NCBI GenBank assembly: GCA_026195275.1
Contig: JAPHQU010000001.1
Coordinates: 77,712 to 141,711 of the forward strand
From: Minisyncoccota bacterium
Lineage (GTDB): Bacteria > Patescibacteriota > Minisyncoccia > Phycocordibacterales > JABMNX01
Direction: 5' to 3'
Length of the DNA: 64,000 nucleotides
Position numbers and translations under genes: made by a program. Below are positions 3,736-63,312 of the stretch, piece by piece. The stretch's first letter is position 1, and every line of letters begins with the position of its first letter. Below the pieces are notes generated by a model. It saw nothing but the letters and a program-made list of their open reading frames with translations. It did not search any database and was not told the DNA's origin.

Positions 3736-4065
3736 CTACATTCTCCACGAGCGCTCATGGAGAAAATAGAGGATACCAAAGGTGAGATGCATAACGCCGC
3801 CGACGAGCATAGTCCACGACAAACTGAGACCGTTCGCCAAATAGAGTCCGCATGGCATAACCAGCATCGATCCGAACCATGCTATTAAAATCATCGCCGC
3901 GCCATCTTGGTAATACTCCCCTGTTTCCTCATCAAACACATTCGCAATGGCGGGGATAAACCATGTCACCCACTGTAAAAGCAGGATGGAGGCGTACTTC
4001 ACGGAAAGTCCCAGATGCCGAATCGGCGCAACGGGAGAAATCCGAGGTCCAATTTGAATATACAT
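3736..4065 (-). CDS. hypothetical small membrane protein
   Basis: 109-aa ORF, ATG at 4065, 3 predicted TM segments; no recognisable motif. Confidence 0.4.
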   Translation of the reverse strand: MYIQIGPRISPVAPIRHLGLSVKYASILLLQWVTWFIPAIANVFDEETGEYYQDGAAMILIAWFGSMLVMPCGLYLANGLSLSWTMLVGGVMHLTFGILYFLHERSWRM

Positions 4066-4176: not shown

Positions 4177-4437
4177 TTACACCAAGGGCGTTTTGATAAA
4201 AACATAGAGCGTGCCAGACATGAGATAAAAACCAACCATGATCGCGCAAAGTGATGGCACCGATGTCACAAACGAGAGGACCAGGAGGAGTGAGGTAATC
4301 ATTCCATAGAGCATGAGAATGCCCACTACGTCAGCCTTAAGGAGCTCATCGATATTTTTGTTTTTAATGTCTCCGATTGCGAAGACAATCCACGCAATAA
4401 GCACCTTGGAGGTCTTGAAGATCAAGTGTCTGTTCAT
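4177..4437 (-). CDS. hypothetical small membrane protein
   Basis: 86-aa ORF, ATG at 4437, two hydrophobic helices; stop embedded in terminator hairpin AAAACGCCCTTGG-ATTACA-CCAAGGGCGTTTTG. Confidence 0.4.
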   Translation of the reverse strand: MNRHLIFKTSKVLIAWIVFAIGDIKNKNIDELLKADVVGILMLYGMITSLLLVLSFVTSVPSLCAIMVGFYLMSGTLYVFIKTPLV

Positions 4438-4589
4438 GCGTCTTCCTTTCTCTTTGGCGTGTATCTAGTCGTGAAAATACCACATATTTCTATATATAGC
4501 AATACCTCTTATAACACGACATGCGCGCTATAGTGACGGGAGTATGAGCTTACAAATGAGTAAACAAGAAGTGCTCTTGTGGTAAACCT

Positions 4590-4612
4590 AGGACCGCCAG
4601 GATATAACATTC
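4590..4612 (-). repeat. degenerate tRNA-derived fragment (variable-loop/T-stem-like GGCGGTCCTAGG)
   Basis: aggaccgccaggatataac resembles the reverse complement of the anticodon-stem/variable-loop region of the adjacent tRNA (ggaccgccaagatataagc). Confidence 0.3.
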
Positions 4613-4661
4613 GTGGGATTGGTTCACTCGGTCAAAATAAAGTAATAATCTCAGATTTGTG

Positions 4662-4735
4662 AGCGTACCAGGATTTGAACCTGGGACCGCGGAGATATAT
4701 TTCATATATTCTCTACATTCGAGTGAACTGCAAAC
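4662..4735 (-). pseudogene. tRNA 3'-half remnant (variable loop + T arm + acceptor 3' strand) fused to an AT-rich hairpin; no acceptor 5' strand or D arm
   Basis: minus-strand RNA ...GAGAAUAUAUGAAAUAUAUCUCCGCGGUCCCAGGUUCAAAUCCUGGUACGCUCA copies CGGUCCCAGGUUCAAAUCCUGG of the intact tRNA 75 nt upstream; no GAGCGUA partner for the 3' acceptor strand. Confidence 0.45.
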
Positions 4736-4740
4736 ATTTG

Positions 4741-4814
4741 TCCGTCCTCCAGGATTTGAACCTGGGACCGCCAAGATATAAGCTTGGTGCTCTAACCAAC
4801 TGAGCTAAGGACGG
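4741..4814 (-). tRNA. tRNA with anticodon UAU (AUA-decoding tRNA-Ile2-like); C1-G72 acceptor
   Basis: revcomp CCGTCCT-TA-GCTC-AGTTGGTTA-GAGC-A-CCAAG-CTTATAT-CTTGG-CGGTC-CCAGG-TTCAAAT-CCTGG-AGGACGG-A folds as canonical cloverleaf; anticodon loop CUUAUAU gives UAU. Confidence 0.7.
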
Positions 4815-4912
4815 AATGCAAGAACTATACCGTAAAGTTGGACTTCTTTGAAGCTCTCATCGTCTGTGCTACAGTGGCATCAGTTTTGTTCCAATGAACC
4901 GAGGAAAATGAC

Positions 4913-5293: not shown

Positions 5294-7282
5294 CTATTCG
5301 CTGTGTTCGATATCCTCTTTTTTCTTCGGGGTGATGCCGTTTGCGATGAGGAGTTTTTCAAATTCATCGCGTTCAAGCGTCTCTACCTTAACGAGCTCCT
5401 GCGCGATCGCGTCGAGTGCACCGCGGTGTTTGGTGAGGATGTCCTCTGCCTTCTTATACGCATCGTCAATTATTTTGTGCACCTCGGCATCGATCTCCGC
5501 TGAGACCTTCTCGGAGTACTCTTTTCCGTCGATACCGGAGCCCATGAGCGCGCGACCACCCTCTCCCTCAAGCGCGACCGGCCCGATCTTATCTGACATA
5601 CCGTATTTGGTCACCATGTTGCGCGCGAGCGCAGTGAGCACCTGGAGGTCATTCGATGGACCAGTCGTCACATCATCAAAAACCATCTGCTCAGCGATGT
5701 ACCCACCAAGCGTCGTCGCTATATCATCGAGAAACTCTTTCTTTGACTGCATCCTCCGCTCATCAAACGGGAGCTTGAGTGTGTAGCCTGCAGCGCGACC
5801 ACGCGAGATGATCGAGATCTTGTGTACCGGGTCAGCGTACGGCAACACGCTTGAGACAAGTGCGTGCCCCGCTTCATGGTACGCGGTGATCTCCTTTTCT
5901 TTTGTATTCAAAACATGACTCTTGCGCTCTGGGCCGAGCATCACCTTCTCGATTGCGCGAATGAGGTCGTACTGAGTCACCTTCTTGCGATTCTCACGTG
6001 CCGCCAAAATCGCACCTTCGTTCATGAGTGAGTAGAGGTCGGCCCCCGAGAAACCAGGCGTACGCTCGGCGATCACGGTAAGGTCAACGTCTGAGTAGAG
6101 TGGCTTCTTGCGCGCGTGGATCTTGAGGATTGCTTCACGGTCAGAGCGGTCCGGCAGGTCAACAGTCACCCGGCGGTCAAATCGCCCCGGGCGAAGGAGT
6201 GCAGGGTCAAGGACGTCCGGGCGGTTGGTCGCCGCCATCACGATCACCTTTTCATTCGGCTCAAATCCATCCATCTCCACAAGGATCTGGTTGAGCGTCT
6301 GCTCGCGCTCGTCATTACCACCCCCGACTCCTGTGCCACGCACACGCCCCACTGCATCAATCTCGTCGACAAAGATGATCGCCGGGGCGGACTGCTTCGC
6401 GAGCTTGAAGAGATCGCGTACACGAGATGCTCCAACGCCGACGAACATCTCGACGAACTCTGAACCGGAGATCGAAAAGAACGGCACGCCAGCTTCACCT
6501 GCGACCGCGCGCGCGAGCAAGGTCTTCCCGGTTCCCGGTGCACCCATGAGGATAATCCCCTTCGGGATTTGCGCGCCAATCGCGATAAACTTCTTTGGGT
6601 TCTTAAGAAAATCAACAATCTCAACAAGTTCTTCTTTCGCTTCCTTTGCACCGGCAACATCTTTAAACGTTACTTTCTGGCTCTGGTCATTCGGGTCAAT
6701 GATGCGCGCCTTTGATTGCCCGAATGAGAATGCTTGCATGCCGGCGCCTTTCACCTGCCGTGAGAGGTACCATATGAAGAATGCGATGAGGAATATTGGG
6801 ATGAGGAAAGGCGCAAGTGAAAAGAACCAGAATTTAAACCCACTCGGGTCTTTCACTTCAACACTCACCTCTCCCAACTCATCGTGAGTGACGCCATAGT
6901 TGGCAAGCGTCTCGGTGAGTGCGGTATTAGCTTCTTTCTTCGACTCTTTCTCAGTAGGCTCCTCACCCTCCTCGGCAACATACGTGGCTACCACTCTCTC
7001 GCCACTTACCACAATCGAAGAGACTTCTCCTGCCTGTATATCTCGCGCAAGCTCAGAGATAGGGATGTTTTTGGTCCCCTCTTCGCGACCAACAATGAAT
7101 GAGTATGTGCTCACCAAAATAAGGAGGAGGAGGAGTGTGCTGAGCAGGTTCGCCCAGAACTGCTGACGTTCAGGGAGTTTTGGCATCTCGGACGAAGGCT
7201 TCTTCTCACCCTTCTTCGGATTTTGTCCGGTGTTTTTTGCGGCTTTTTTCTTACCGCTGTGATTTTTTCCAAAGAGGTCCAT
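5294..7282 (-). CDS. ftsH: ATP-dependent zinc metalloprotease FtsH (Lys-rich N-terminal extension)
   Basis: ORF 5294..7444; start set at ATG 7282 ([13 protein letters not shown]...) preceded by TATAAT 12 nt upstream; TM helices, AAA Walker [12 protein letters not shown], Zn site HEAGHA. Confidence 0.9.
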
Positions 7283-7832: not shown

Positions 7833-8242
7833 GGGGATGATCGGCTTCGACAATGAAGATATCTTATCTATGTGCAAGGGAGCAGACCAGAACTGCTTAA
7901 AAAGCTGGAACACAATACGTGCAAAGAAATCTGCACTTGGAATGCTTTCACCTTTCCAGATGAAAAACTTCCAGTTCGCTTACGCACAAGCCTAAGCGAC
8001 CATCAGTACGTTTGACGTCCGATATGACGACACTGGTGTAACCCCAATCGGTCTAGGGTGCGCGATTGCCTCGACGCACATCTGAAACTAAGAGACTCGA
8101 CGTGATGTGATTTTGTTTGTTTCAAACACACCACGTTCAAACAGATCCTGATCTTGTATCTGGGTCAAAAAGACAAACTAGCCCTCTGTAGAATCATTTA
8201 TGAGACCTTTCTTGGACGCGGATTCGATTTCCGCCATCTCCA
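7833..8242 (+). ncRNA. ssrA: transfer-messenger RNA (tmRNA, SsrA); tag reading frame ends ...KNFQFAYAQA*
   Basis: 5' GGGGAUGAUCGGCUUCGAC matches tmRNA 5' consensus; 3' end GCGGA-UUCGAUU-UCCGC-CAUCUCC-A gives T arm and acceptor pairing with 5' GGGGAUG including a G3-U70 pair; internal ORF in frame ending GCT TAC GCA CAA GCC TAA (7978..7995); gene directly downstream of smpB. Confidence 0.8.
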
Positions 8243-8310
8243 CATTTATACCAATATGGACCAAAACAGACCGCTTTGTACCAATATGTACAGGTGGTTT
8301 TTTGGTACTC

Positions 8311-59964: not shown

Positions 59965-60109
59965 TAGGTAAAGAACAGCTTATTGGAAACACGCGCATTT
60001 AATATCTGTGATTCTTGGAGTTCGCTGGGCGTCAGGTTTCTAAGCTCACCGTTCGCACTTCGTGCTCCGCTTCACAATCGAGCGCGAAAGCAAAATAGTT
60101 TGCTTTCTA

Positions 60110-60147: not shown

Positions 60148-60156
60148 ACTCGATTG

Positions 60157-60227
60157 TGCGGGTGGGGGTAATCGAAACCCCGACTACTGCTTGGAAGGCA
60201 GTCATTTTACCACTAAACTACACCCGC
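60157..60227 (-). tRNA. tRNA-Gly (anticodon UCC)
   Basis: revcomp GCGGGTG-TA-GTTT-AGTGGTA-AAAT-G-ACTGC-CTTCCAA-GCAGT-AGTC-GGGGT-TTCGATT-ACCCC-CACCCGC-A; perfect 7-bp acceptor, anticodon loop CUUCCAA. Confidence 0.8.
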
Positions 60228-63058: not shown

Positions 63059-63075
63059 TCGGGGAGCCGGAATCG
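63059..63075 (-). repeat. 17-nt direct repeat of tRNA-Pro 3' end (TCGGGGAGCCGG-AATCG), att-like scar
   Basis: 17/18 identical to 63242..63259, located 183 bp downstream (tRNA sense) of intact tRNA. Confidence 0.5.
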
Positions 63076-63241
63076 GTCACGAGTTGCTAGAGATTGTTCA
63101 GAGCAGAGCTCATCAAATCCCAAGCACTCTCGACCCCGCCTCACTGTTGCTCGTGCCTCGCAACATGTTCCGGCTTTCGATTCTCGACAGAAGCAAAGCA
63201 GTTTGCTTCCTGCTCCCCCCACTCCGCGCAAAGCGCTACGT

Positions 63242-63312
63242 TCGGGGAGCCGGGAATCGAACCCGGGCCGCTCGGTCCCAAACCGAGTACACTACCATTA
63301 TGCTACACCCCG
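63242..63312 (-). tRNA. tRNA-Pro (anticodon UGG), C1-G72
   Basis: revcomp CGGGGTG-TA-GCAT-AATGGTA-GTGT-A-CTCGG-TTTGGGA-CCGAG-CGGC-CCGGG-TTCGATT-CCCGG-CTCCCCG-A; C1:G72 typical of tRNA-Pro; one U-U in acceptor and G-U-rich D stem lower confidence. Confidence 0.65.

Follow-up and report, generated by a model that had tools for sequence, protein, structure and literature searches.

A tandem array of tRNA-Ile(UAU) copies in a member of the Paceibacteria: possible relics of repeated tRNA gene replacement

Classical attachment (att) sites in tRNA genes are direct repeats of the 3' portion of the gene, starting in the anticodon loop or the T loop, and tandem accretion arrays of such sites are known. 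The array discussed here lies on the minus strand of a 64-kb stretch of genomic DNA (contig JAPHQU010000001.1, hereafter the window), which RecG searches group with the Patescibacteria, class Paceibacteria. It consists of an intact tRNA-Ile gene with the anticodon UAU followed by two partial copies of such a gene, here called copy 2 and copy 3, and it was read in the initial annotation as the scars of serial integrase-mediated insertion. The array resembles classical att sites in having direct repeats of the 3' portion that begin within the anticodon or T loop, and in that there is more than one displaced copy. Unlike classical sites it has no island, the displaced copy does not fit the present 5' half of the gene, and in relatives 5' halves are found displaced upstream.

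In the tRNA-dependent lysogeny of actinobacteriophages, integration disrupts the host tRNA gene and brings its own replacement; what integrates is an entire prophage, equipped with a tyrosine integrase, and the common core is around 10 bp (Guerrero-Bustamante and Hatfull, 2024; PMC10865867). The tRNA-Ile loci of the Paceibacteria (loci of relatives are given L numbers below) are similar in that the proposed insertion leaves the tRNA gene unrebuilt and brings a complete tRNA of the same isotype, which is flanked by the parts of the resident gene. A resident tRNA gene split around an insert is seen in L027, L038, L098, L118, L033, L054, L003, and L081, while the window has 3' parts only. The loci differ from the lysogenic system in that the inserts are non-coding and only about 170-260 nucleotides (nt) long, the overlap is the 4-nt TATA, and nesting is repeated; none of the loci yielded an integrase or a phage gene. 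In its logic the proposed replacement resembles tRNA-dependent lysogeny, without belonging to that system.

Bacterial tRNA-Ile(UAU) is known from a few species that lack tilS, for instance Mycoplasma mobile (PMC3575796). The UAU anticodon is likewise genome-encoded here, but as a trait of the whole Paceibacteria lineage. The disrupted, split, and multi-intron tRNA genes of archaea and Cyanidioschyzon also share some features with the present loci, namely inserts in the anticodon, T, and D loops and pairing with the adjacent tRNA. In contrast to those genes, an intact intron-less copy is always present here, the interrupted copies are often defective, and Rfam gave no group I core. The intact copy, together with the lack of a G before the 3' junction, led us to reject a group I or bulge-helix-bulge tRNA intron, and no Rfam intron or ribozyme matched at E ≤ 5-10. 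No interrupted-only tRNA-Ile was found in the 13 loci without an ARAGORN call, which are mostly short contigs.

The best explanation for positions 4571-4852 of the minus strand would be one working tRNA-Ile(UAU) gene with its own putative promoter, followed by relics of earlier tRNA-Ile(UAU) genes. We tentatively favor the view that these relics record repeated replacement of the whole gene, brought about by small non-coding segments inserting into the anticodon loop, and would give it a little less than an even chance.

Copy 2 begins with the anticodon TAT (start TATATC), followed by the stem strand CTCCG, an intact T arm, and the acceptor strand TACGCTC. Shared with the intact gene are 7 nt of the anticodon loop, an identical block of 23 nt from the variable loop and T arm, and a 6-nt flank, ACAAAT. 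Exactly two occurrences of the 21-mer GGTCCCAGGTTCAAATCCTGG were counted in the 64 kb, where 100 shuffles gave an expectation of 0. Two nucleotides differ in the 3' strand of the anticodon stem (CTCCG versus CTTGG) and six of seven in the 3' strand of the acceptor stem (TACGCTC versus AGGACGG), while the two sequences are identical outside these strands. Since only the 3' strands of two stems are affected, and the differences are not scattered as in decay, copy 2 is another allele and not a decayed copy of the present gene, and the description of the copies as progressively degraded is wrong for copy 2. The differing positions are those that vary among the tRNA-Ile(UAU) alleles of related genomes.

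The acceptor strand of copy 2 pairs with the present 5' strand CCGTCCT at only two of seven positions, and the tRNA cannot therefore be explained as an old 5' half joined to a 3' half brought by an element, as a 3' end reconstituted by an integrase would require. The 3' half of copy 2 would mismatch the present 5' acceptor strand, yet the acceptor stem of the present gene (CCGTCCT/AGGACGG) is perfect, which argues that the present gene is a complete replacement.

Copy 3 breaks off in the T loop into TACCACAAGAGCAC and is without an acceptor strand; its sequence is near that of the present allele. Both copies are direct and start at the anticodon, and both are real, although their positions in the initial annotation (4662-4735 and 4590-4612) were a few bases off. 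The Rfam model did not score either of them as a tRNA even at E ≤ 10. The copies are spaced by 81 and 93 nt, the spacers are unique sequence, and a motif ending in CGAATGT (repeat D11) stands ahead of each partial copy. Within the second occurrence of this motif (4607-4631), CCGAGTGA fits the CCGA[AG][CT]GA motif of a hairpin module, E, found in relatives. The stretch GTTCACTCG/GUUCACUCG at 4720-4728 is complementary to CGAGTGAAC/CGAGUGAAC at 4622-4630, and the helix would enclose copy 2. The junction GGTT..ACCACAAGAG(T/C)A that follows the truncated copy is also found in L027, L053, and L058. L158 shares the CACCACAAGAGTATTTCC module; the recG identity of these genomes to the window is about 61%.

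Table 1. Features of the tRNA-Ile(UAU) array and of related units in the window.
Feature	Position	Strand	Basis and remarks
Promoter-like site, TTCAAA-17 nt-TATAGT, sigma-70-like	4824-4852	-	Consensus scan; putative, consensus match only
tRNA-Ile, anticodon UAU (tat)	4740-4814	-	ARAGORN; Rfam RF00005, 70.7 bits at 4741-4814, full-length model match
Trailer AAATGTTTGCAGTTCACTCGAATGT	4715-4739	-	Aligns with trailer and 3' internal-loop strand of the E module of L003 and L081
AT-rich hairpin AGAGAATATATGAAATATATCTC	4692-4714	-	RNAfold; 3' arm is the start of copy 2; in place of a normal anticodon stem-loop
Copy 2, TATATCTCCGCGGTCCCAGGTTCAAATCCTGGTACGCTCA, 3' half of a different tRNA-Ile(UAU) allele	4660-4699	-	Repeat search, alignment
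Spacer after copy 2	4632-4659	-	Starts CAAAT, as does the trailer of the tRNA itself
CCGAGTGAACCAATCCCACGAATGT, second copy of the motif ending in CGAATGT	4607-4631	-	Repeat D11; holds the 3' strand of the 9-bp helix
Copy 3, TATATCCTGGCGGTCCTAGGTT	4585-4606	-	Repeat search; tRNA positions 34-55, 2 mismatches; blastn-short E = 3e-4
TACCACAAGAGCAC, start of a T-loop insert common to distant relatives	4571-4584	-	Junction comparison
D-armless tRNA-like unit after tRNA-Pro (63242-63312, -)	63059-63220	-	Fold z = -2.0
Degenerate version after tRNA-Gly (60156-60227)	60030-60108	-	Hairpin AGAAAGCAAACTATTTTGCTTTC after terminator

Both ARAGORN and Rfam bear out the UAU anticodon of the intact gene, at positions 34-36 of the cloverleaf. 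The discriminator is A and CCA is not encoded. In 22 housekeeping genes of the window, 86 of 9615 codons are ATA (8.9 per 1000, or 11.6% of the Ile codons), and since AUA is used in conserved genes a decoder for it is needed. A TilS domain was not seen in the open reading frames (ORFs) of the window, which covers 64 kb and has no bearing on the rest of the genome. The anticodon had been regarded as an oddity of this locus. However, 68 of the 80 genome loci have a tRNA-Ile(UAU) close to recG, a number that rises to 111 non-redundant loci when metagenome loci are included, so that UAU is the standard recG/ftsH-linked tRNA of the whole lineage.

The -10 hexamer of the putative promoter ends 9 nt upstream of the tRNA. 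The promoter block AACTTTACGGTATAGTT is also present ahead of the tRNA in L001, and a -35/-10 block in L002, L081, and L086. In L003 and L081, the loci whose trailers align with that of the window, an E hairpin module encloses the tRNA. A candidate decayed outer 5' half upstream of the tRNA in the window (around 4840-4870) was rejected, since alignment with relatives identified it as the -35 region of the promoter. Upstream of tRNA-Ile in L027, L055, and L098, between promoter and tRNA, there is a hairpin formed by the acceptor 5' strand and its complement (CCGCCTGTA ... CAGGCGG), which is conserved across the three genomes.

The relatives fetched are all metagenome-assembled genomes or metagenome contigs, and partial copies were counted in 108 non-redundant tRNA-Ile loci with sufficient flank (E ≤ 0.001). 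A direct 3' partial copy is found downstream of the tRNA in 24 loci, starting at position 34-35 (11 copies) or 56-58 (11 copies), and a direct 5' partial copy upstream in 10; of the 11 copies of the latter kind, 8 have their end at positions 35-38. An inverted copy is seen in one locus only. About a quarter of the relatives display the same polarity, with 5' pieces upstream, 3' pieces downstream, and breakpoints in the anticodon or T loop. Relative to recG the tRNA-Ile gene is in plus orientation in 56 and in minus orientation in 55 of the non-redundant loci, while the neighboring genes keep theirs, indicating that the small tRNA module is often rearranged.

Nested arrangements are found in L027, L033, L038, L054, L057, L098, L107, L118, L003, and L081. 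Here an outer 5' half ending in GCTTA is followed by the 54-60-nt hairpin E, TAT, a leader strand, a complete tRNA, a trailer complementary to the leader, an A, and an outer 3' half starting with TATAC. Every nested locus has a full tRNA-Ile(UAU) as its inner gene. With a trailer of 14-18 nt, the outer T arm starts from +106 to +110 in eight loci. In L027, L038, L098, and L118 the outer 5' and 3' acceptor strands pair with each other at all seven positions. The inner allele is unlike the outer one in L027, L054, and L057, and the window shows the same mismatch between the gene and copy 2. In L081, L003, L054, and L033 it is the outer 5' half that is driven by the promoter, while in the window, L001, L002, and L086 the promoter abuts the intact gene. 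Since the promoter is conserved, its position in the first four loci indicates that the outer gene is the old resident and the inner one the insertion. Many outer copies are damaged in the anticodon loop or stem (TAGAG in L118, TATAG in L027, TGTAC in L057, a deletion in L058, and also L074). L058 equals its close relative L056 plus a 123-nt block consisting of a spacer and an old 3' half; either a precise insertion or recombination between repeats could explain the difference.

In the closest relatives the 3' copy is reduced to about 10 nt (L003) or to a decayed stretch (L081), which argues that the copies in the window are relics rather than a conserved functional structure. The possibility that relatives share the copies as such a structure, which would have told against integration scars, was borne out insofar as they carry copies of the same kind and some structured modules, but not in these two loci.

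According to the favored model, a short non-coding segment carrying a complete tRNA-Ile(UAU) gene, or sometimes a tRNA-like unit, would insert at the TATA of the resident anticodon loop. The insertion would split the resident gene, and the decoding of AUA would pass to the incoming gene, following the same "disrupt and complement" logic as in tRNA-dependent lysogeny, minus the prophage. The split halves could then decay, be homogenized by gene conversion, or drop out through recombination between direct repeats. Such losses would explain why only 3' parts are found beside a promoter-proximal gene in the window. The array in the window might be the result of either of two histories. Two successive nested rounds would give it, but so would one insertion only, if the inserted DNA was a helix-closed D-armless tRNA-like unit with copy 2 inside it and displaced the 3' half of the present allele as copy 3.

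The inserts of the relatives contain structured modules. In module E an internal loop is conserved while the closing helix covaries, being for instance CG in five sequences and UA in four. E-like sequences were found next to tRNA-Ile only (1.6 Mb). A loose regular expression for the internal-loop motifs of E was too unspecific, with 0.48 matches/kb near tRNAs versus 0.40/kb elsewhere. A TA-targeting miniature inverted-repeat transposable element (IS630/mariner-like) was considered and rejected; the inserts do have TA flanks, but their terminal helices show covariation where such an element would have conserved ends, and E is not dispersed.

The T-loop modules on the tRNA-Ile and tRNA-Ser 3' fragments of relatives belong to at least three families. 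F1, a 60-75-nt module found in the T loop of both kinds of fragment, consists of TTCGAA, a long covarying hairpin, GUACUG, and a short hairpin with a UGUAA loop. When 14 sequences were aligned (alignment A2: L004, L011, L019, L032, L042, L058, L064, L073, L077, L079, L098, L104, L120, and L145), 92% of the cells were paired versus 66% in shuffles. The covariation score was 0.659 versus 0.229, none of 500 shuffles scored as high, and slid controls reached at most 0.24. G.U pairs exceed A.C pairs by 17 to 4, which places the structure on the tRNA-sense strand and suggests that it exists at the RNA level. The close relatives L019 and L032 have near-identical flanks and different F1 subfamilies between TCGAA and TCGAG. 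E, F1, and F2 matched no Rfam family at permissive thresholds (window region and nine related loci), and exact-pattern scans of IMG/VR gave no F1 and only five chance matches to F2 in high-GC contigs. The motifs of E and F2 were compared by eye with hammerhead ribozymes, C/D-box RNAs, k-turns, RNase P, and the signal recognition particle RNA, but the defining cores of these did not fit.

Similar structures are found at other tRNA genes. The D-armless unit after tRNA-Pro in the window starts with the acceptor-like strand GGGGGAG, the hairpin GCAAACTGCTTTGC, and GAGAATCGAA. It continues with F2, a structured module of about 100 nt containing GGCGGGGTCGAGAG ... CTCGTGAC, and ends in an exact copy of the last 17 nt of the tRNA followed by a terminator. 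The hairpin after tRNA-Gly resembles that of the tRNA-Pro unit; next to it comes a degenerate stretch similar to F2 (GAAGCGGAGC...), but a copy of the tRNA 3' end is missing. Downstream of tRNA-Ile in L084 (6700-7110, plus strand) three tandem F2-like modules (GTCCGAAGCGGAGGC ... GGGGTCGCGAG ... CTCGTGAC) are free-standing, outside any T loop, and the GCAAACTGCTTTGC hairpin lies ahead of the first two. tRNA-Ser(GCU) and tRNA-Ser(ACU) in the same loci as tRNA-Ile have similar partial copies with breakpoints in the D and T loops. In L001, L011, L038, L053, L074, L077, and others, the upstream flank of tRNA-Ser contains a copy of positions 1 to about 18, a hairpin, and an antisense strand, and the downstream flank a D-armless tRNA-like unit ending in the tRNA's own 3' end. 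The anticodon ACU, with A at position 34, is unusual in bacteria; ARAGORN finds this tRNA-Ser beside tRNA-Ser(GCU), upstream of recG, in many relatives (L008, L009, L012, L013, L020, L021, L029, L030, L039, L042, and others).

Several observations weigh against repeated gene replacement. In L038, L098, L118, L033, and L107 the inner tRNA and the outer halves have the same sequence, while alleles differ between genomes, and this identity needs recent events or gene conversion. The window itself has no 5' half, and nesting is deduced from relatives whose recG identity does not exceed 77%. The order of a present, an other, and a present-like allele in the window, L027, and L054 does not give a single clean history. 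Neither a recombinase or transposase nor a circular intermediate was found, and the inserted segments fall far below the size of any known integrative element. Finally, the covariation in E, in the leader/trailer helices, and in the T-loop modules, together with the surplus of G.U pairs relative to A.C pairs, suggests that RNA structure is under selection and hence points to function, not to relics alone.

A second reading, which we consider possible but doubtful, is that the Paceibacteria harbor undescribed small, protein-less structured elements in tRNA loops, comprising E, the families F1, F2, and F3, and the hairpins GCAAACUGCUUUGC and AGUCUGGGAGACU, with copies 2 and 3 as one worn example. 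Such elements would build the nested or D-armless units at tRNA-Ile, tRNA-Ser, and tRNA-Pro, and the degenerate one at tRNA-Gly. They could be either mobile elements or new introns acting at the RNA level, or functional tRNA-mimicking RNAs that co-evolve with the neighboring tRNA.

A functional role for the tRNA-like trailers is a serious rival, although we regard it as unlikely. The copies would then be parts of co-transcribed D-armless tRNA-like RNAs, kept for pre-tRNA processing, as decoys, or for regulation. Units of the same type after tRNA-Pro in the window and after tRNA-Ser and tRNA-Ile in relatives fit such a role, as do the pairing, covariation, and G.U excess of F1 and the covarying helix of E. 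The match between outer halves and inner gene in several genomes with mutually different alleles points the same way. In the window, the trailer region 4600-4739 is predicted to form a helix-closed unit around copy 2 (z = -2.5; 2 of 200 shuffles were as stable), and GAATGTA is a possible acceptor-like partner of copy 2, with six of seven pairs. Folded on their own, however, neither copy 2 (z = -1.7) nor copy 3 (z = -0.3) is of unusual stability, and the copies have not been kept in L003 and L081. About three quarters of the related tRNA-Ile loci are without a partial copy at the threshold used, and many outer copies have disabling changes.

Purely local events, that is slippage, unequal crossing-over, or template switching combined with gene conversion and hairpin-extending mutations, would require no foreign DNA. 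We find this explanation rather improbable. It would account for the identity of outer and inner sequences in L038, L098, L118, and L033, for the mosaic copy 3 in L054, and for the many junctions at the palindromic TATA or TTCGAA. A tandem duplication is, however, contradicted by the spacer, which is not repeated after the second copy. Foreign alleles occur in the window, L027, L054, and L057, conserved non-tRNA modules (E, F1, and F2) lie at the junctions, and nesting requires insertion.

The interpretation as integrase scars fares worse, and we consider it very unlikely. It would hold that a tyrosine-integrase element inserted in the anticodon loop, that the 3' half of its attP site rebuilt the tRNA, and that the island was later deleted, all of this twice. 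The anticodon loop is a crossover position typical of tRNA-targeting integrases, the direct 3' copies start there, copy 3 is near the present allele, and some Patescibacteria carry prophages flanked by attachment sites. An att scar should show a direct repeat of a 3' segment, which is present, but the island and the fit to the present 5' strand are both lacking. No island was found, the copies being only 81 and 93 nt apart, and no integrase, recombinase, or transposase domain was found in the window in a survey of 42 non-overlapping ORFs of at least 170 amino acids (aa) for Pfam-type domains. All partial copies in the related non-redundant tRNA-Ile loci scanned are within 700 nt of the tRNA, save two 14-nt matches (E = 0.002). 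An exact-pattern scan of IMG/VR from the anticodon loop to the T arm, to which plasmids and divergent attP sites are external, gave no attP-like partial copy; the 3'-half pattern hit 45 contigs, each with a complete tRNA gene of phage or archaeal type. One locus with a Paceibacteria-like tRNA, L166, has Pfam matches to an RNA ligase and amidoligase-type enzymes nearby, and none to an integrase. Nor can the upstream 5' halves of relatives arise in this way. The classical integrase/island picture thus fails three tested predictions, namely compatibility of copy 2, presence of an island or integrase, and one-sided copies in relatives. What stands of the initial annotation is that more than one event is recorded at the tRNA gene, but not the repeated use of an integrase attB site.

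An assembly artefact, in which strain variants were collapsed into a false tandem array, is hardly credible: the relatives are admittedly all metagenome-derived, but the spacers are unique sequence and the same architecture is found in dozens of independent assemblies, including OZ244961 (L001, tRNA-Ser nest), a record titled chromosome.

The tRNA-Ile locus is surrounded by housekeeping genes. Upstream, on the plus strand, a histidine kinase gene and recG are found, and the opposite flank holds ftsH, smpB, and the gene for tmRNA; two small membrane-protein ORFs are also among the neighbors. The ORFs of at least 170 aa in the window mostly encode ribosomal, translation, secretion, competence, and glycolysis proteins, and the remainder have no Pfam match. 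The small ORFs beside the copies gave nothing informative from PHROGs or Pfam. Since homologues of orf109a (3736-4065) are found at the same place in L002, L003, L082, and L083, it is an ancestral neighbor and not cargo. In L002 (around 5630-5660) and L003 (around 4265-4290) a second stretch similar to the 3' end of recG (CTACACTTTGAATAAG) is joined to the -35 of the tRNA promoter. It lies about 850 nt downstream of the true recG stop, with the orf109a homologue in between, and looks like an insertion at the end of recG with its last codons duplicated. The tmRNA (7833-8243, plus strand) is 411 nt long, directly follows smpB, and has a long tag, AKKSALGMLSPFQMKNFQFAYAQA; tags of similar length are found in relatives. 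The nearest relative has 76-77% RecG identity. A metagenome RecG scan gave none above 77%, and a strain-level filled or empty site for the window was not found in it; an exact-protein look-up of an 86-aa ORF and SmpB returned no record for close strains. Related assemblies are around 0.6 Mb.

It is a lineage-wide pattern that tRNA genes are surrounded by pieces of further tRNA copies and by small structured inserts, and no mobile-element gene was found near the tRNA-Ile array. If the replacement model is correct, essential tRNA genes of reduced genomes would be repeatedly overwritten by tiny non-coding insertions, each with a replacement gene, and the leftovers would pile up in nested or tandem arrays. 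Such a process would amount to addictive gene replacement in its minimal form, and might also partly explain why tRNA-Ile alleles are sharply different among close relatives and why the orientation of the gene relative to its neighbors is random. The covarying modules outside Rfam are candidate structured RNAs, or candidate mobile elements, of a new kind, in a phylum where experimental genetics is nearly absent. Annotators should not count tRNA fragments beside tRNA genes in the Paceibacteria group as evidence of a prophage or genomic island.

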